Shown here: in pieces, positions 1,294 to 6,309 of the stretch
How the letters are laid out: each line of letters begins with the position of its first letter
Position numbering within the stretch: position 1 is the first letter of the stretch
IMG/VR virus record: IMGVR_UViG_2703718791_000019
Length of the DNA: 6,309 nt
Origin: a virus
Lineage: Duplodnaviria; Heunggongvirae; Uroviricota; Caudoviricetes
Reading direction: 5' to 3' (one strand)
The notes under the pieces: model-generated
What the model was told of the DNA's origin: nothing
The model's database searches: none
The model's input: the letters and a program-made list of their open reading frames with translations, nothing else
Program-made: the position numbers and the translations under genes

Positions 1294-1566
1294 TTACCTC
1301 CAGATGCGTTGCTGGAATGTGCGGGACGGACGCGGCGGGCGTTCGGAATAAAGGAGCCTGACGTAGATTATCCAGTGACGGTAGTCGAGGCTAAGGGCTT
1401 TCTTAAACTCATACCCACGTCTGCGGTAGTTATGAATCAGCCATTCGGCCTGTTCTTCAGTGCAGGGATCGTGCTGATACCAGTCATATTTGAATGTGTG
1501 AGAACACCGCCCTTGCCTGCTGGCAGGGGCGATATCAGAATTGTGATGTTTGGTATTGTGCGCCAT
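1294..1566 (-). CDS. hypothetical 90-aa protein
   Basis: ATG at 1566-1564 is the first ATG in the frame; stop TAA at 1294-1296 is 1 nt from the GTG start of the next gene, so the two look coupled. No clear Shine-Dalgarno. The ORF-track extension to 1647 starts at a TTG inside the terminator U-tract and is rejected. No recognisable family. Confidence 0.45.
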   Translation of the reverse strand: MAHNTKHHNSDIAPASRQGRCSHTFKYDWYQHDPCTEEQAEWLIHNYRRRGYEFKKALSLDYRHWIIYVRLLYSERPPRPSRTFQQRIWR

Positions 1567-1635
1567 CGGTTGTCTCTGCTGGCGCAGCAGGTGCCAGTTG
1601 TTCAGGCTGGCGTGTGGATTGTAAACCAGAATGCC

Positions 1636-1664
1636 AGGAAAAAACAAAACCCGCGAAGCGGGTT
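1636..1664 (-). terminator. Rho-independent terminator downstream of the restriction endonuclease gene
   Basis: Plus strand 1648-1664 is aacccgc-gaa-gcgggtt, a perfect 7-bp stem with 3-nt loop. On the minus strand it is followed by TTTTGTTTTTTCC (plus 1635-1647). It sits 73 nt after the endonuclease stop. Confidence 0.6.
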
Positions 1665-1736
1665 AGTAAAAATGTACTGAAGTCAATGACGTGCCATCAC
1701 AGTTAAAATATGACAGACTCTATTTACGTAGAGATG

Positions 1737-2615
1737 TCAGACTGCAAGATCCAAGGGAAGATCAGAAATATCCTTTAATCTTTTACCATTAACCATCACG
1801 GAAAGCATGTCAGCTGCATCGCTGAGCCCCAGTATTTCAACTGCTGATATAAGTTCATAAAGCGCAAAATGATACACGCAATCTATATCACCAGTACCAA
1901 GAGCAATAGACGCCAGACGACTTGGAGTAGGCTCAGCAGTAACAACCATTACATGAGGGAGATTTCCCTTACGGTTGCGAATAAGATTTAATGCCTCAGA
2001 ACGAGCATTCTGGGCCCGGTCGCTTCTTATTGTCCATTTGCAGGAAATACTTGCGTGTAATATTGGTTTCCCACCATTCGAACTCCTGAGAGCTGACATG
2101 CGGGTAACAGAATCATCCACCAGTAATTCAGGACTGTTGATAACTTGATCACATTCAGGTTCTCTTTCAACAATAATATCTGGTGAAATCGTATAATCAC
2201 TCCCCAGTGCAGCAGCTAGCTGAGGATTACTTTTTGCAGCACTATCCAATGCTATAAGATGGGCATATTGTTCATATTTAGCTATCTCTAATCTGTTTCT
2301 ACCAGAAACCTGATGTACATTCCATTTTCCAGGGCGTAAGTGGCTGAGTTTAAAAAAGGTTTTTTCTATAAACTCTGCGCAGATACTCTCAAACTGATTA
2401 CCAGATGTTTGCCCTGCAACACGTTCACCAATCGTTTCAGCCTGCAAGAAGCGAGCAATTTCTCTTGCTATAGCTTTACTGTTTTTGTTACTGCTATCTG
2501 CGTTACTAACAACTCCGGCAGTATTAATTGTGAGCGTATTCAGTAACAATTGGGCATGAAACTCCTTTCTGGCTTCAGCAAAACCAACTATGCTGTCAAC
2601 CAAATCTCCATTCAT
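1737..2615 (-). CDS. Type II restriction endonuclease, PD-(D/E)xK fold, NgoMIV/Cfr10I-like (predicted GCCGGC or RCCGGY specificity)
   Basis: 292-aa product from ATG 2615-2613, with AAGGA about 9 nt upstream and 14 nt after the methyltransferase stop. Candidate catalytic residues are SPD(146), SCK(193) and E(207): spacing D-47-K-14-E, the same spacing I recall for NgoMIV D140/K187/E201. C-terminus MVNGKRLKDISDLPLDLAV. The ORF-track N-terminal extension (2616-2750) overlaps the methyltransferase in another frame and is rejected. Confidence 0.75.
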   Translation of the reverse strand: MNGDLVDSIVGFAEARKEFHAQLLLNTLTINTAGVVSNADSSNKNSKAIAREIARFLQAETIGERVAGQTSGNQFESICAEFIEKTFFKLSHLRPGKWNVHQVSGRNRLEIAKYEQYAHLIALDSAAKSNPQLAAALGSDYTISPDIIVEREPECDQVINSPELLVDDSVTRMSALRSSNGGKPILHASISCKWTIRSDRAQNARSEALNLIRNRKGNLPHVMVVTAEPTPSRLASIALGTGDIDCVYHFALYELISAVEILGLSDAADMLSVMVNGKRLKDISDLPLDLAV

Positions 2616-2628
2616 TTCTGGATTTCCT

Positions 2629-3753
2629 TCAGGCTGCTTGACTATTCTTACTGATGTTATTCTTATACCGTCCCTGCAAAACTCCATACACATATTGTGC
2701 GATTTTTGCCGCAAATAGCGGTGGAACAGCATTCCCGATCTGCTTTGCAATCTCAGTTTTTGAACCGGTAAAAATGAAATTATCAGGAAAAGACATTAAT
2801 CTCGCTGCCTCACGATGAGTTATTGGCCGATCCTCTTCCGGATGTAAATATCGCCCTTTCTCCGGTTTGAAAAACTCAGTACGAATCGTTACTGAAGGTC
2901 TGTCCCACCACAGACGTCCAAACAAATCGGTCCCTCCAGATTTCTTTTTTAGCCAGCACGCCGGGGTTATATCAGGTCTTTTTTTCTGTAAATCGAAACG
3001 GTTACCTCCTGGTGGAACCGCTTTATATCGCTCCAGAGAAACAGGTGTGGGATTACGCCCAAAATGTAAGTTCAGCGGAGGAAGTTCATTACGAATATCA
3101 GTTCCAACAGGAGCAGGTAAGTCACCAATTGCATCACGCGTACAGACCCATTCAGGCAAAGCGACATCCTTATCAGGGGAACGATGCGTTGGTGCTGGCG
3201 GGAACGCCGGAATACTATGCACATCGAAGAGTTCTCGTTTGATACCGATTGCTATCGTTCGTTTTCTTGTCTGAGGTACTCCATAGTCAGCAGTATTCAA
3301 CACCATTGGATTAAGCAGAATAAAGCCCATGGATTTCGCTCTAAACGTAATGTCCGCAAACTCATCGCTTATCAGCAATCCGGGGACATTTTCCATGACG
3401 AACATACAAGCCCTTGAACGCTCAATGACATCCATATAAGGCTCCCACAATGCTCTTCGGTGATCACCATAACGATTCTTATTCAATAAACTGAATCCCT
3501 GACACGGGGGGCCACCTATGACCACATCAGCCTCAGGAACAGTATTGCTGGATGCCCACTCCTCAATATTTGCCTGAACTCCATGCAAACCAAAATTGGC
3601 ATTGTAGGTATTTATAGCTGCAGCATTATTATCAATAGCAAGGATACTTTCAAAGTAGTCAGACATCTCTCCATGAAGAAAACCATAAGATAATCCACCT
3701 GCCCCACAAAAGAGGTCTATCACTCTGAATTTATTTAATTCTTTCATCCGCAT
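2629..3753 (-). CDS. DNA (cytosine-5)-methyltransferase, cognate methylase of the adjacent endonuclease
   Basis: 374 aa with canonical m5C-MTase motifs in order: I FCGAGG, IV GGPPCQGFS, VI FVMENVPGL, VIII QTRKR, X QIGNAVPP. ATG at 3753 with GAGG 8 nt upstream. Stop TGA at 2629-2631. Confidence 0.93.
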   Translation of the reverse strand: MRMKELNKFRVIDLFCGAGGLSYGFLHGEMSDYFESILAIDNNAAAINTYNANFGLHGVQANIEEWASSNTVPEADVVIGGPPCQGFSLLNKNRYGDHRRALWEPYMDVIERSRACMFVMENVPGLLISDEFADITFRAKSMGFILLNPMVLNTADYGVPQTRKRTIAIGIKRELFDVHSIPAFPPAPTHRSPDKDVALPEWVCTRDAIGDLPAPVGTDIRNELPPLNLHFGRNPTPVSLERYKAVPPGGNRFDLQKKRPDITPACWLKKKSGGTDLFGRLWWDRPSVTIRTEFFKPEKGRYLHPEEDRPITHREAARLMSFPDNFIFTGSKTEIAKQIGNAVPPLFAAKIAQYVYGVLQGRYKNNISKNSQAA

Positions 3754-3836
3754 CCATATGCCTCAGATTAATGTTGAGCGTCTTACAGGACGCGTAATGT
3801 TAACTGGGGCTTTCTCTATCTGCCTTTTGGTGTTCA

Positions 3837-3931: not shown

Positions 3932-4618
3932 TCACTCCTTCTCTTCTTTTCCGTAGTGGAGTTGGCCAATTTTGATAAGAGGGCGTCCCTGAGATTTGCG
4001 GTGTAGATTGGTATCGCGCAGAGAATACACACAGCCACAATATTCCTGCTGATAGAATTTTTCGCGCTTGCTGATTTCAATCATACGGGACGAGCCGCCC
4101 TGCTTGCGCCAGTTATAATCCCAGTACACCATACCCGGATAATGCGCAACAGCTCGCCGCCCACACTCGTTAACCTGCTGCATATTTTTCCAGCGTGAAA
4201 TGCCCAGTGAACTGCTGATCACACTGAAACCATTTTCAGCAGCGTACAACGCTGTCCGCTCAAAACGCATGTCAAAACACATGGTACAACGGATCCCCCT
4301 CTCAGGCTCCCATTCCATTCCTTTGGCACGTTCAAACCAGTTGTCGGTGTCGTAATCAGCATCGATAAACGGCACGCCGTGTTGTTCAGCAAAGCGAATA
4401 TTTTCATCCTTACGAATTAAATACTCTTTCTGAGGATGAATGTTCGGGTTGTAGAAAAAGATGGTGTAGTCGATTCCCGAGGCCTGAAGCGCCTCCATCA
4501 CTTCACCGGAACATGGAGCACAGCAAGAGTGCAGTAGTAGTTTGTTTGCCCCGTTTGGGAGCTCCAATTTAGGCCGTTTGAAATCAGCAATAGTCATAAA
4601 TATTTTTATTGGGGTCAT
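3932..4618 (-). CDS. queH: QueH-like protein (DUF208 family; putative cobalamin-independent epoxyqueuosine reductase)
   Basis: 228 aa carrying the DUF208/QueH hallmark [11 protein letters not shown] near the N-terminus, then [19 protein letters not shown] and [14 protein letters not shown] cysteine motifs. ATG at 4618; the alternative ATG at 4597 cannot be excluded. No strong Shine-Dalgarno. Stop TGA at 3932-3934. Confidence 0.75.
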
Positions 4619-4771: not shown

Positions 4772-5197
4772 CTAGTAACGTCTAAAATATCTAACATTTC
4801 CTTGATAAAATGCCAGTACACGCTGCATAGCTTCGCTCTTCCGGCACTCGCGACAGATTATGTTCATACGCCTGTCGTAGCGGCGTATTTCTCCGTCGGG
4901 TAATGTCCAGATAAGGCCCGGATCAACCACTGCAGGTTTCTTCACCTTTGCCCTTGAGAGTTTTTTGCGAGCATTTTGCCAGTCCTTACGCGCCTGTTCA
5001 GACGGGAATAACCCGTAACCAGAGTTGTATACATCGCCACTGGCAACCAGCTCTCTGGCAAGAACGCTCATCAGATATCTTGTCGCACCTGTCTTGGCTT
5101 CCAGTTGCCGTAACGTCTCGCGCCCACTCCGGCGTACTAGCTCAACAACCTGCCCTTTAATTTTTTCCCGCTCTTCTTGTGTAAATACTTTTGCCAT
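4772..5197 (-). CDS. hypothetical basic protein, 141 aa, possible winged-helix DNA-binding N-terminal region
   Basis: ATG at 5197-5195 with AAGG 6-7 nt upstream, 15 nt after the TGA of the upstream gene. The TTG at 5212 used by the ORF track is less likely. Lys/Arg-rich; contains LRQLEAKTGATRYLMSVLARELVASG, read by eye as HTH-like. Stop TAG at 4772-4774. No family recognised. Confidence 0.65.
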   Translation of the reverse strand: MAKVFTQEEREKIKGQVVELVRRSGRETLRQLEAKTGATRYLMSVLARELVASGDVYNSGYGLFPSEQARKDWQNARKKLSRAKVKKPAVVDPGLIWTLPDGEIRRYDRRMNIICRECRKSEAMQRVLAFYQGNVRYFRRY

Positions 5198-5212
5198 AAG
5201 CGCCTTCGGCAA

Positions 5213-5960
5213 TCACTTTTCCGATACAACACGGCGGGAAGAATCAGTAATCTGTCGAACAATATCCCGGTGCTTGTTCAGCTCCCGCAGCGCGGCGCAG
5301 ATTCGCTCCCACTTCTGAACATCACTTTTCGCCCTGCGCAGCGCCAGGTTTGCCCTGCGCAGGGACGGAAAAATCAGCTCATCTGCTTGCGTTTCGGTAA
5401 ACGATAGCAACGGCTGCACAATGTCCGCCACAGTTTCTGTTTTAATTTCTTCCTGTGTTGCGGCTTCCCGGACTGGTAACGCAGCACCTGCTGGCTGAGG
5501 AAAGGCCTTACCATCATTTTCCGTTACCAGCGCGGCTTTCGGCTCTGCTGGTAAATTATCGCCCGGCATGCAGTAACGAAATTTACCGTTCTGATTAACG
5601 CGTGCCAGGCGCCCCGTTGCTGTTACGACCGCCAACGTGGAAGCAACCTTGCGAATGCTAACACCGAACTTATCCGCCAGTTCCTCACACGTTTTAGCCC
5701 CATCCTGACCGATAAACTCAATCATCATGTCTGCGGTAACTTTTTGTTCGACCTCCCCGGTCAGCATATCCTGTGCTTCAGATTTTACTGGCCGCTCTTC
5801 GGTTACCCGGGATTCACCTTCGCCAGCCAGAAACCAGGTGTGACCAGTTTTATCAACGACGCCATTTCTTTTGAGTTCCCACAGCTCGTTGACAGCATCT
5901 TCGCGGCTGATTCCAAGGCGCGATGCCACTACCTGTGAAGAGGCTTTTTTCAGTGCTTTC
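5213..5960 (-). pseudogene. Gene for a winged-helix-like protein, 5'-truncated by IS insertion; the open frame continues into the IS to 6037
   Basis: The 274-aa ORF 5213-6037 crosses the IS terminus at 5961. Its first 25 codons (MLPSEIMIWQPEFTDKILSRKPGAV) are encoded inside the IS right end, so the native N-terminus is missing from the window. The native part has two HTH-like stretches: VASRLGISREDAVNELWELKRNGVV and CEELADKFGVSIRKVASTLAVVTATGRLARV. Confidence 0.55.
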
Positions 5961-6309
5961 TGAACCGCCCCGGGTTTCCTGGAGAGTATTTTATCTGTGA
6001 ACTCAGGCTGCCAGATCATTATTTCCGATGGAAGCATAATAAGCTTTTTCTGCTTCTGCCGGAGGAATATGGCCCAGCCTTTCCAGCAATCGTCGATTGT
6101 TATACCAGTCCACCCACGTTCGTGTGGCCAGTTCCACTTCTGTCCGGTTTTTCCAGCTATTACGGTGTATTACCTCCGCTTTGTAAAGACCATTGATGCT
6201 CTCAGCCATCGCGTTGTCATACGAGTCGCCAGTACTCCCTGTTGATGCCAGTAATCCGGCTTCCTTAAGCCGCTGCGCGTAGGCCAGCGATACATACTGA
6301 GAACCTTTA
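5961..6309 (-). mobile_element. IS3-family insertion sequence, IS629/IS1203-like, right end (partial; continues beyond window)
   Basis: The terminus TGAACCGCCCCGGGTTTCCTGGAGAG beginning at 5961 matches the remembered IS629-type terminal inverted repeat (TG... end). The OrfB stop lies 42 nt inside the end. Orientation is minus. Confidence 0.85.
6003..6309 (-). CDS. IS3-family transposase OrfB, C-terminal portion (partial at window edge)
   Basis: The frame is open to the window edge. Translation ...KGSQYVSLAYAQRLKEAGLLASTGSTGDSYDNAMAESINGLYKAEVIHRNSWKNRTEVELATRTWVDWYNNRRLLERLGHIPPAEAEKAYYASIGNNDLAA contains the DDE-region signature GDSYDNA..ES.NGLYK.E and the WVDWYNNRR tail typical of IS3-family OrfB. 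Stop TGA at 6003-6005. Confidence 0.9.
   Translation of the reverse strand, partial: KGSQYVSLAYAQRLKEAGLLASTGSTGDSYDNAMAESINGLYKAEVIHRNSWKNRTEVELATRTWVDWYNNRRLLERLGHIPPAEAEKAYYASIGNNDLAA

Follow-up and report, generated by a model that had tools for sequence, protein, structure and literature searches.

Resistance to RexAB exclusion is the phenotype that defines ren, the gene that follows P in bacteriophage lambda (where the replication genes are not accompanied by a DUF1627 gene), and the name Ren reflects this Rex-exclusion phenotype. The 96-residue lambda Ren is non-essential and contacts Rex proteins in a two-hybrid assay; Thomason et al. described ren as "likely involved in DNA replication" and reported two-hybrid contacts within the O/Ren/Rex set. 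Once polarity has been corrected for, lambda forms plaques without the gene, and neither P-lethality nor replicative killing requires Ren. A second described relative of the locus studied here is YdaW (b1361) of the Rac prophage of E. coli K-12, which sits after the DnaC-like YdaV; over-expression of K-12 ydaW was validated as blocking the retron-Sen2 toxin RcaT, an effect that was obtained with a truncated, over-expressed allele and could be indirect. A third, LygF of Salmonella Enteritidis phiSE14, belongs to the DUF977 family and gives its name, which carries no functional information, to many phage records.

Here we analyze two adjacent minus-strand genes in a 6,309-nt stretch of Caudoviricetes DNA (IMG/VR record IMGVR_UViG_2703718791_000019; hereafter the window), which lie between an insertion sequence and a QueH-like gene and whose features are collected in Table 1. 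A sequence-only reading had described two tightly linked genes, 15 nt apart, for proteins with HTH-like stretches, the downstream one a highly basic protein of 141 aa and the upstream one interrupted by the insertion sequence. On these points the description was borne out: both ORFs are present, the spacer is exactly 15 nt, AlphaFold2 models two winged helices with an acidic linker between them upstream and one winged helix downstream, and the downstream protein has a pI of 10.3. The same reading recognized no family for either protein, a view that does not survive comparison with Pfam, where both score far above the gathering thresholds of their families, DUF1627/YdaW for the upstream protein and DUF977 for the downstream one.

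Table 1. Features of the two-gene locus and of its insertion-sequence edge, in window coordinates.
Feature	Position	Strand	Evidence
IS629 (IS3 family) 3' end, C-terminal part of OrfB transposase	5961..6309	-	Pfam rve_3/rve_2 matches, identity
5'-truncated DUF1627 / YdaW-family gene, residues 9-256 of 256-aa protein	5213..5960	-	PF07789, PHROG 630, intact homologue
DUF1627 winged helix 1, residues 9-53, first helix partly lost	5825..5959	-	AlphaFold2 pLDDT 84-92
Acidic disordered linker 1, residues 54-83, pI 4.05	5735..5824	-	pLDDT <50 at residues 56-79, composition
DUF1627 winged helix 2, residues 84-140	5564..5734	-	AlphaFold2 pLDDT ~80
Disordered Pro/Ala/Glu-rich linker 2, residues 141-196, pI 4.25	5396..5563	-	pLDDT 31-46
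DUF1627 C-terminal long basic helix, residues 197-256	5216..5395	-	Single helix H197-255, pLDDT 65-84
Intergenic spacer TTGCCGAAGGCGCTT, 15 nt, Shine-Dalgarno-like GAAGG 7 nt ahead of ATG	5198..5212	-	Sequence
DUF977 / LygF gene, 141 aa + stop	4772..5197	-	Pfam PF06163, PHROG 142, hhalign to lambda Ren
DUF977 winged helix (residues 7-64) and fourth, basic helix (residues 67-85)	4943..5179	-	AlphaFold2 pLDDT 94-97
Conserved C-terminal Ren motif NIICRECRKSEAMQRVLAFY, residues 112-131	4805..4864	-	Comparison with lambda Ren and DUF977 alignment

The downstream ORF starts with an ATG at 5197 and stops at 4772-4774. Its product matches PF06163 (DUF977) with 100.2 bits (E 1.3e-28) over profile positions 1-133 of 134, and membership, defined as a whole-protein HMM score of at least 22.1 bits (the gathering threshold) together with full-length coverage, is established. 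The profile of PHROG 142, annotated as a "Ren-like exclusion protein," is matched both by the window protein (E 1.3e-46) and by lambda Ren (E 1.6e-41), which places the two in one family. Alignment of the DUF977 profile with lambda Ren by hhalign yields a probability of 95.3% (E 2e-8) and spans the winged helix and the C-terminal motif; the motif by itself matches in a pairwise comparison of the two proteins with E 5e-7, and 12 of its 20 positions are identical to lambda Ren residues 73-92. In 16 sequences, lambda Ren among them, the pattern N-x2-[CF]-x-ECR-x-S-x2-M-x-R-V-L-A-x-Y is almost invariant, the DUF977 form being N-x2-C-x-ECR-x-S-x2-M-x-R-V-L-A-F-Y; the corresponding segments read N-LVFKECRQSAAMKRVLAVY in lambda Ren and NIICRECRKSEAMQRVLAFY in the window protein. 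When lambda Ren was used as a tblastn query against the IMG/VR loci, 90 of its 96 residues aligned to DUF977 genes, although the Pfam DUF977 model finds no match in lambda Ren itself. Both genes also stand directly after the replication genes of a rightward early operon. These comparisons of sequence and gene order identify DUF977 as a longer homologue of lambda ren and as its positional counterpart. Clear homology to a well-known lambdoid protein was what the sequence-only reading had named as counting against its proposal of an uncharacterized module, and for the downstream protein such homology is what was found.

In DUF977 a winged helix is followed by a disordered, basic linker and then by the conserved C-terminal helix motif of Ren. 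It shares the winged helix and the motif with lambda Ren, and both proteins are basic (pI 9.9 for lambda Ren; in the window protein, 31 K+R against 16 D+E residues). The window protein is 45 residues longer; it has one more helix at its N terminus and, between winged helix and motif, an insert of 45 residues that is basic or disordered, and an invariant CxxC (C115 and C118) stands where lambda Ren has F-x-x-C. The strongest conservation in the family falls on the C-terminal motif and not on the HTH: of 13 invariant columns in the DUF977 alignment, nine lie inside the motif and a tenth, Y107, just ahead of it. At low confidence, AlphaFold2 predicts the motif as a helix that is not packed against the winged helix; the protein ends in ...NIICRECRKSEAMQRVLAFYQGNVRYFRRY. 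Elsewhere, DUF977 winged helices are reported fused to Fic domains, an arrangement that the window protein does not share. Within the window the DUF977 gene is intact and retains its own ribosome-binding site.

Foldseek returned only generic GntR/MarR/ArsR-type winged helices for the DUF977 winged helix, and searches against PDB and BFVD gave generic winged helices with no Ren-specific or other informative fold; single-protein sequence searches of PDB found no significant match, and NCBIfam has no family for either protein. A Z-alpha identity was considered after the DUF977 profile matched the Z-alpha domain of PKZ (E 8e-4), and it was rejected because the residues that contact Z-DNA are not conserved: the positions of the Asn and Tyr on the Z-alpha recognition helix are Arg/Glu in the DUF977 profile consensus and Ser/Leu in the window protein, and the wing reads G-x-F, not P-P-x-W. 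A dimeric factor of the MarR or GntR type was likewise discarded; all Pfam HTH-family matches fall below their cut-offs, Foldseek E values against such winged helices are only ~1e-2, and the models show neither MarR dimerization helices nor a GntR effector domain.

The upstream gene, which ends in a TGA at 5213-5215, belongs to DUF1627: its product scores 319.4 bits against PF07789 (E 4.3e-96; profile positions 1-155 of 155), far beyond the whole-protein gathering threshold of 28.1 bits that defines membership, and PHROG 630 matches the gene with E 8e-124. The search for uninterrupted homologues that had been proposed for this gene succeeded, recovering the full-length protein of 256 aa; the intact copy found in E110019 scores 313.7 bits against PF07789. 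Comparison with such copies locates the damage precisely. Similarity to E. coli prophages ends at 5960, and the terminal inverted repeat of IS629, ...CCGGGGCGGTTCA, has its end at 5961, which sets the IS629 edge at 5960/5961. The stretch beyond the edge is 99.1% identical to the IS629 OrfB annotated in phage BP-4795 and 99.4% identical to IS3-family copies of E. coli, and it contains an OrfB remnant as a 68-aa ORF fragment at 6003-6209. IS629 has removed the first 23 nt of the DUF1627 gene, that is, the start codon, residues METVSDA and part of L8, and has also displaced the Shine-Dalgarno sequence; the native form of the protein is probably not made from this decapitated copy. The 274-aa ORF at 5213-6037 is a chance in-frame run into IS629. 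The IS629-DUF1627 junction of the window is absent from the related loci retrieved for comparison.

DUF1627 has a beads-on-a-string architecture, in which each of the two winged helices is followed by an acidic disordered linker and a long helix forms the C terminus; the AlphaFold2 model, which was built on a shallow alignment of sequences 60-96% identical, bounds the winged-helix domains at residues 1-52 and 84-138. Winged helix 1 (H4-11 E13-15 H16-23 H27-39 E43-46 E49-52 in the model) is the best-conserved block of the alignment and gives a weak Pfam match to HTH_Crp_2, and linker 1 differs in length and sequence from clade to clade. Winged helix 2 is weakly related to the winged helix of Ren/DUF977 (hhalign against DUF977, 62%, E 7.5e-5), and PHROG 142 also matches residues 102-155 of the IS-fusion ORF, which cover this region, with E 5e-6. 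In the C-terminal helix, K224, W225, E226, R227, C229, A231, L232, R233, E234 and N236 are invariant, and this helix is probably a coiled-coil or oligomerization element. The best Foldseek matches to the whole model are tandem winged-helix scaffolds (ScpB, the SelB C-terminal domains, ESCRT-II and TFIIIC), matches that are weak (E 5e-4 to 1e-2, TM ~0.2) and lack sequence homology; unlike these scaffolds, DUF1627 has a disordered acidic linker of ~30 residues between its domains, and no fixed tandem arrangement is predicted.

K-12 Rac YdaW is 51% identical to the window protein over the first 146 residues, occupies the same place and has the same two winged helices. The two copies are damaged at opposite ends, K-12 YdaW being cut after winged helix 2 and continued by an unrelated tail to 186 aa, whereas the window copy is cut at its 5' end; the long C-terminal helix of the intact 256-aa protein is missing from K-12 YdaW. 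The family is narrow: a scan of GTDB species with two N-terminal peptide patterns as the query found 4 Escherichia loci only. PGAP names the homologues of the window gene "DUF1627 domain-containing protein."

In the window both genes are in one reading frame, and ENA contains two proteins (P0123 and P0124) in which they are fused. Programmed readthrough or fusion was nevertheless rejected as a conserved property: spacers of 16 nt and a double stop, TGA-TAG, also occur, and the spacer has its own Shine-Dalgarno sequence. The 15-nt spacer (TTGCCGGAGGCGCTT) recurs, with GGAGG, in most of the distinct junctions of related loci. An Rfam search gave no match within either gene.

The pair closes the early-right (replication) operon of an Escherichia lambdoid prophage of the Rac/Qin type, and the order YdaS-YdaT-initiator-helicase loader-DUF1627-DUF977 parallels lambda cro-cII-O-P-ren. 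The genes had been assigned to an accessory-gene slot; instead, they are backbone and not cargo, because the variable cargo (QueH, R-M) begins only after DUF977. Wherever a locus left room for it, DUF977 followed DUF1627 (117 of 117 loci, all from the close clade of the window); at least 25 different neighbors follow DUF977, and the pair is found both with and without QueH and R-M. In the sampled loci DUF1627 comes immediately after a phage-encoded helicase loader, which is of the DnaC type or the lambda-P type, two unrelated families; DUF1627 and a loader occur together in 47 of these loci, neither occurs in 22 and a loader alone in 0, counts drawn from closely related prophages that are phylogenetically non-independent. 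Co-occurrence of the two genes, the lack of which the sequence-only reading had named as counting against its proposal, is frequent but not obligate. DUF1627 is present in 24 GenBank phage records and DUF977 in 24, with both in only 12; 22 of 72 DUF977 loci lack DUF1627, PPompW phages and locus L167 carry DUF1627 without DUF977, and in E. coli, too, either gene can be found by itself. The two genes therefore do not make up an obligate module.

By analogy with lambda Ren, the likeliest role of the two proteins would be to protect lytic replication from abortive-infection systems, and we give this explanation as a whole a probability of about 50%. DUF1627 and DUF977 would be made along with the replication proteins during lytic growth and would act as non-enzymatic binding proteins (neither AlphaFold2 model contains an enzymatic domain). 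Both would protect the phage, while it replicates, against abortive-infection or exclusion systems encoded by the host or by resident prophages, as Ren does against RexAB; the C-terminal motif of DUF977 may be a partner-binding element, and DUF1627 may act beside the helicase loader. Of the roles offered earlier, that of an exclusion module comes closest, in that an exclusion-related direction is the best supported, but the proteins would more probably counteract exclusion, as lambda Ren does, than cause it. Prophages that carry window-type genes have no rexAB beside the repressor, so an anti-Rex role would matter only in superinfection of Rex+ lysogens, or another system would be the target.

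The main rival, a possible but less favored account, is that the proteins are replication accessory factors, DUF1627 as an adaptor or regulator working with the loader or with host DnaB and DUF977/Ren as an auxiliary part of the replication complex, which would improve or time origin firing with no counter-defense function. The place of both genes directly after initiator and loader argues for this account. So does the way DUF1627 tracks loaders of both unrelated types, a pattern that a target common to the two, e.g., DnaB, would suit. Tandem winged-helix proteins (ScpB, SelB-C and TFIIIC, for instance) typically serve as scaffolds, and the view of ren taken by Thomason et al., with the O/Ren/Rex contacts, points the same way. 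On the other hand, plaque formation, P-lethality and replicative killing do not depend on Ren, replicons built on the same initiator function with neither loader nor DUF1627, and DUF1627 is truncated both in K-12 Rac and in the window. A more specific version of the protective reading, which we regard as rather unlikely, would make the slot that closes the lambdoid replication operon the seat of a non-enzymatic winged-helix counter-defense family, in which the C-terminal helix shared by Ren and DUF977 would neutralize a sensor of replication intermediates (RexA-like or of another abortive-infection system) and DUF1627/YdaW would be carried with loaders because host abortive-infection systems, e.g., retron toxin-antitoxins, detect the loader-DnaB complex.

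It is improbable that the proteins are MarR-like, sequence-specific transcription factors of the downstream nin region or of the QueH and R-M cargo, the idea that had led the sequence-only reading. The winged helices, with their GntR/MarR/ArsR regulators as best matches, the strongly basic character of DUF977 and the listing of YdaW among the uncharacterized MarR-type transcription factors of K-12 would suit such a role, but control of the cargo is disfavored by the variety of downstream neighbors beside a constant pair. The subthreshold HTH-family matches, models that lack MarR-type dimerization helices or a ligand domain, and the peak of conservation in a non-HTH motif also speak against it, and a promoter and terminator scan stayed at background level, with no gene-strand promoter-like site in the DUF977-QueH intergenic region. 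Least probable is a prophage defense, superinfection-exclusion or toxin-antitoxin pair that guards the lysogen. PHROG 142 is filed under "moron, auxiliary metabolic gene and host takeover" with the word "exclusion," and an R-M system and a hok/sok remnant lie nearby; yet the genes lie in a lytic operon of the pR type, after analogues of cro and cII, and would be expected to stay silent in a lysogen, neither model has an enzymatic, membrane or toxin-like domain, and genes that each occur alone fit poorly to a two-component pair. PADLOC reported nothing for DUF977 and only weak, HTH-level matches of the DUF1627 fusion ORF to Csa3 and CARF3 (E ~0.002), and the precedent of Ren is relief from exclusion. 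Protection of lytic replication in the manner of Ren is the reading that we prefer.

The discovery value of the locus is small: both genes are common and already catalogued, being known from thousands of annotated E. coli genomes, and PHROGs already imply the link to Ren. Of the complete E. coli genomes, 84% contain DNA that matches the pair at least in part, and more than 200 blocks of public assemblies encode the exact 141-aa DUF977 protein. Read as a longer form of Ren whose 20-residue motif is sharply delimited, DUF977 offers a handle on the mechanism of Ren, a question now 45 years old, and the association of DUF1627/YdaW with two unrelated loader families, together with the retron-toxin blocker phenotype, suggests a counter-defense or loader-associated role. 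The variable cargo slot (QueH, R-M, hok/sok) has its true left edge after DUF977, which aids the reading of neighboring features of the window.

By profile comparison, both proteins belong to named families. The upstream protein matches Pfam DUF1627 at 319 bits (cut-off 28) and PHROG 630 at E 8e-124, and the downstream protein matches Pfam DUF977 at 100 bits (cut-off 22) and PHROG 142, "Ren-like exclusion protein," at E 1.3e-46; the sequence-only reading had recognized no family for either, a view overturned by scores far above both Pfam cut-offs. Homologues are called "DUF1627 domain-containing protein" and "DUF977 family protein" in RefSeq and "YdaW family protein" and "LygF" in phage records, and the K-12 Rac gene ydaW is a truncated DUF1627 gene (51% identity) lying directly after DnaC-like ydaV. 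At the DNA level, 4,573 of 5,426 complete E. coli genomes match some or all of the pair, with up to nine places in a single genome, and at least 80% of the pair is present in 1,145 of the 5,426; public assemblies contain the exact 141-aa DUF977 protein in more than 200 indexed blocks. Among 1.8 billion representatives, DUF977 matches form only 101 clusters at 50% identity, many of them fragments, and two peptide patterns scanned against 185,579 species representatives placed DUF1627 in Escherichia only. On these searches both families are taxonomically narrow, DUF1627 as far as the two patterns reach. The pair thus consists of known, very common, functionally uncharacterized families, of which DUF977 is homologous to lambda Ren, and the finding is an ordinary one.

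Actinobacillus phage vB_Apl-pPE4 (PP818812.1, 10084-10806) carries a DUF1627 gene with 76% protein and ~84% DNA identity to the E. coli one. Its recorded host is Actinobacillus pleuropneumoniae; the other DUF1627 records here are from Escherichia and Shigella phages only, besides a few Salmonella-labelled database proteins. The host could be mis-assigned, or the transfer could be very recent.

Lambda Ren itself matches PHROG 142 (E 1.6e-41). A DUF977 profile built from twelve diverse DUF977 proteins, with Ren left out, aligned to lambda Ren over both the winged helix and the C-terminus (hhalign probability 95.3%, E 2e-8), and in tblastn 90 of 96 lambda Ren residues aligned to DUF977 genes in IMG/VR loci. 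Pairwise BLAST between lambda Ren and the window DUF977 matched NIICRECRKSEAMQRVLAFY to NLVFKECRQSAAMKRVLAVY, with 12 of 20 residues identical (E 5e-7). Nine of the 13 invariant columns of the DUF977 alignment (N112, C115, E117, C118, R119, S121, M124, R126, and F130) fall in the conserved C-terminal stretch common to lambda Ren (residues 112-131, the Ren motif) and a tenth, Y107, just ahead of it; the winged helix is only ~20-30% conserved. By these alignments, DUF977 is a longer homologue of lambda Ren, so that the downstream gene has clear homology to a well-known lambdoid protein, which the sequence-only reading had named as evidence against itself. Lambda Ren lies below the reach of the Pfam DUF977 model, and this probably explains why routine annotation does not show the relationship.

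The minus strand carries every sizeable gene of the window (table below). DUF977 is followed, after a gap of 153 nt, by QueH, a C5 methyltransferase, an NgoMIV-family endonuclease, a small ORF, and a DUF968 gene. The gene boundaries proposed from sequence alone proved exact, with similarity to E. coli prophages ending at 5960, and the C-terminal end described for the downstream protein is present, as is its strongly basic character (pI 10.3). As an observation the two-gene arrangement was confirmed; its interpretation found partial support.

Features of the DUF1627-DUF977 region (nucleotide positions) and of the two predicted protein models (residues)
Feature	Position	Strand	Remark
IS629 3' end	6309-5961	-	first in transcription direction
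DUF1627 gene, 5'-truncated	5960-5213	-	TGA stop at 5213-5215
Spacer between DUF1627 and DUF977	5212-5198	-	15 nt
DUF977 gene, 141 aa	5197-4772	-	ATG at 5197
DUF1627 winged helix 1	residues 1-52		predicted model
DUF1627 disordered acidic linker	between winged helices 1 and 2		predicted model
DUF1627 winged helix 2	residues 84-138		predicted model
DUF1627 second disordered linker	residues 143-196		predicted model
DUF1627 single long basic helix	residues 197-255		predicted model
DUF977 winged helix	residues 7-64		AlphaFold2, pLDDT >94
DUF977 basic fourth helix	residues 67-85		AlphaFold2, pLDDT >94
DUF977 disordered basic stretch	residues 86-115		AlphaFold2
DUF977 C-terminal helix	residues 116-138		AlphaFold2, pLDDT 50-77; not packed on winged-helix domain

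Positions 5961-6309 are 99.1% identical to the IS629 annotated in phage BP-4795, and the terminal repeat of the window IS (...CCGGGGCGGTTCA) finishes at 5961. Uninterrupted homologues, which the sequence-only reading had suggested looking for, supply the full-length upstream protein of 256 aa, starting METVSDALKALKK; comparison of intact DNA with the window places the insertion after nucleotide 23 of the coding sequence, leaving nearly eight codons, together with the start codon and the Shine-Dalgarno sequence, on the far side of IS629. Two IMG/VR contigs hold intact copies that match the residual 248 residues at 100% identity, so the insertion looks recent; the IS629/DUF1627 junction of the window is absent from all ~170 related loci compared. 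The window DUF1627 is probably a pseudogene, since the translation start is gone and the first helix of winged helix 1 is partly missing. A 274-aa ORF was rejected as a real gene, being a chance in-frame run into the IS without an obvious ribosome-binding site. DUF977 is undamaged and is preceded by a ribosome-binding site of its own, in which the Shine-Dalgarno sequence is slightly weakened; with a 1.3-kb IS of the same orientation now upstream of it, the gene may receive less transcription from the early promoter.

The spacer between the genes, TTGCCGAAGGCGCTT, contains a Shine-Dalgarno-like GAAGG; this 15-nt spacer, mostly with GGAGG, is found at most distinct junctions of related loci, and some variants have a 16-nt spacer or a TAG immediately after the TGA. 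In the window the genes share a frame, with the TGA plus five codons between them (5198-5215); programmed readthrough as a conserved device was rejected because of the 16-nt and TGA-TAG junctions elsewhere. Two proteins from ENA contigs, P0123 and P0124, are DUF1627-DUF977 fusions with GGA in place of the TGA stop, probably through mutation or sequencing error and not programmed readthrough.

Uninterrupted relatives have a repressor and then the order YdaS or Cro, YdaT (a cII analogue), initiator, helicase loader, DUF1627, DUF977, variable genes, DUF968, and RusA, the same order as cro-cII-O-P-ren in lambda. The replication operon therefore ends with the pair, which lies outside the accessory slot to which it had been assigned, since the variable genes begin after DUF977. 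In neighbor counts from ~150 IMG/VR loci of close relatives, which overlap because some contigs are in both sets, DUF977 directly follows DUF1627 in 117 of 117 loci with room, and a helicase loader directly precedes DUF1627 in 112 of 115 (DnaC/IstB type in 94, lambda-P type in 18). DUF977 is preceded by DUF1627 in 119 loci and directly by an O-like initiator in 22, and followed by QueH in 56 and elsewhere by at least 24 other genes. Contigs with the identical DUF977 protein join one right-hand block (DUF1627-DUF977-QueH-MTase-NgoMIV) to three different replication modules.

O-like initiators of HannyBb (L001:13758-14828), E110019 (356 aa; L086:2495-3460), and PhiR5_2 (L002:6948-8030) share ~19-20 identical residues, a stretch that K-12 YdaU (L003:4120-4977) matches at 68-70%. 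HannyBb O has no other BLASTP similarity to the E110019 and PhiR5_2 initiators, which are 69% identical to each other over 197 residues; the shared stretch may mark a recombination joint.

The pair is a two-gene module only loosely. Among 50,697 GenBank phage records, DUF1627 occurs in 24, DUF977 in 24, and both in 12, where they are adjacent every time; each gene is also found alone. The PPompW phages and E. coli prophage L167 have loader-DUF1627 without DUF977, and HannyBb, PhiR46_1, and prophages L165 and L166 have DUF977 without DUF1627, with HannyBb, L165, and L166 also lacking a phage loader. DUF1627 and a phage-encoded loader form the cleaner association: in 70 loci anchored on DUF977 that extend 2.6 kb or more upstream, which are closely related, so that counts are not independent events, both are present in 47, neither in 22, DUF1627 without a recognized loader in one, and a loader without DUF1627 in none. 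Lambda differs in that ren follows P with no DUF1627 between.

Between otherwise similar replication modules (related loci L165-L167, L094, L113-L128, and others), loader and DUF1627 come and go jointly; downstream of the same YdaT and O-like genes stands either the series loader, DUF1627, and DUF977 or DUF977 directly. Loader-DUF1627 behaves as a two-gene insertion/deletion unit.

The HTH-like character read by eye was borne out in predicted structures, with two winged helices in DUF1627 (28 sequences of 60-96% identity, mean pLDDT 66) and one in DUF977 (AlphaFold2, 12-sequence alignment, mean pLDDT 79). In the latter model, the C-terminal helix looks like a partner-binding element. Winged helix 2 of DUF1627 shows a weak relationship to that of Ren/DUF977, with E 5e-6 against PHROG 142 and an hhalign probability of 62% (E 7.5e-5). 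Fold searches returned, with weak E-values, only generic winged helices (GntR, MarR, and ArsR types) for both proteins, including for DUF1627 the tandem winged-helix scaffolds SelB-C, ScpB, ESCRT-II, and TFIIIC; no enzymatic, membrane, or toxin-like domain was found in either protein. A profile resemblance to the Z-alpha domain (E ~8e-4) was rejected since the Z-DNA contact residues fail.

We propose that DUF1627 and DUF977 would be non-enzymatic binding proteins produced along with the replication machinery, that both may shield lytic development against abortive-infection or exclusion systems, and that DUF977 would engage, via the Ren motif, a partner conserved between lambda and Rac-type phages; to this joint reading we assign a probability of about 0.4-0.5. 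Toothman and Herskowitz reportedly defined ren in 1980 as the gene that lets lambda evade Rex exclusion, and Thomason and Court are said to have found in 2022 that Ren rescues host phenotypes caused by RexAB. A bacterial two-hybrid assay shows contact between Ren and Rex proteins, and K-12 ydaW, when over-expressed, was validated as one of a few prophage "blockers" of the retron-Sen2 toxin RcaT.

The main rival, a direct replication-accessory role, draws on the operon position of the pair and on a loader linkage that spans two unrelated loader families with only their target, DnaB, in common; lambda ren, co-transcribed with O and P, has been described as "likely involved in DNA replication." [quoted passage not shown] Specific transcriptional regulation of the QueH and restriction-modification (R-M) cargo, as suggested from sequence alone, is improbable and a poor fit to this genomic context: QueH occurs with or without the R-M cassette and the pair also with neither, which speaks against regulators of this particular cargo. 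A defense or toxin-antitoxin module fits that context poorly as well and is very improbable. Our additions are modest: an explicit Ren-DUF977 motif, the DUF1627 domain architecture, and the DUF1627-loader linkage, by which targeted experiments on Ren-type proteins become straightforward.

In the downstream cargo, QueH (epoxyqueuosine reductase) is full-length (3932-4618, minus strand; 221 bits); this tRNA-modification enzyme is the commonest gene directly after DUF977 in related prophages (the 56 loci), a recurrent prophage cargo. G+C is 0.41-0.43 over the endonuclease and methyltransferase (~1600-3800) versus 0.50-0.57 in the flanks, and the R-M cassette is present in only some of otherwise identical loci, which fits recent acquisition. 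Between QueH and the methyltransferase, and sharing ~60 nt with the start of the methyltransferase ORF, lies a match to Rfam sok (RF01794; 3684-3864, minus strand; 61 bits, gathering score 59; E 4e-12). No Hok-like ORF was found at this site; relatives carry hok/gef-type genes in the same slot (PPompW gef, a MokW-like gene in HannyBb, and hokD in prophage L165), and the window site resembles a hok/sok remnant that took up the R-M cassette by insertion. The small conserved ORF (1294-1566, minus strand; 90 aa in RefSeq) matches PHROG 1212 and no Pfam family, and in all related loci having it, it adjoins the DUF968 gene on the upstream side.
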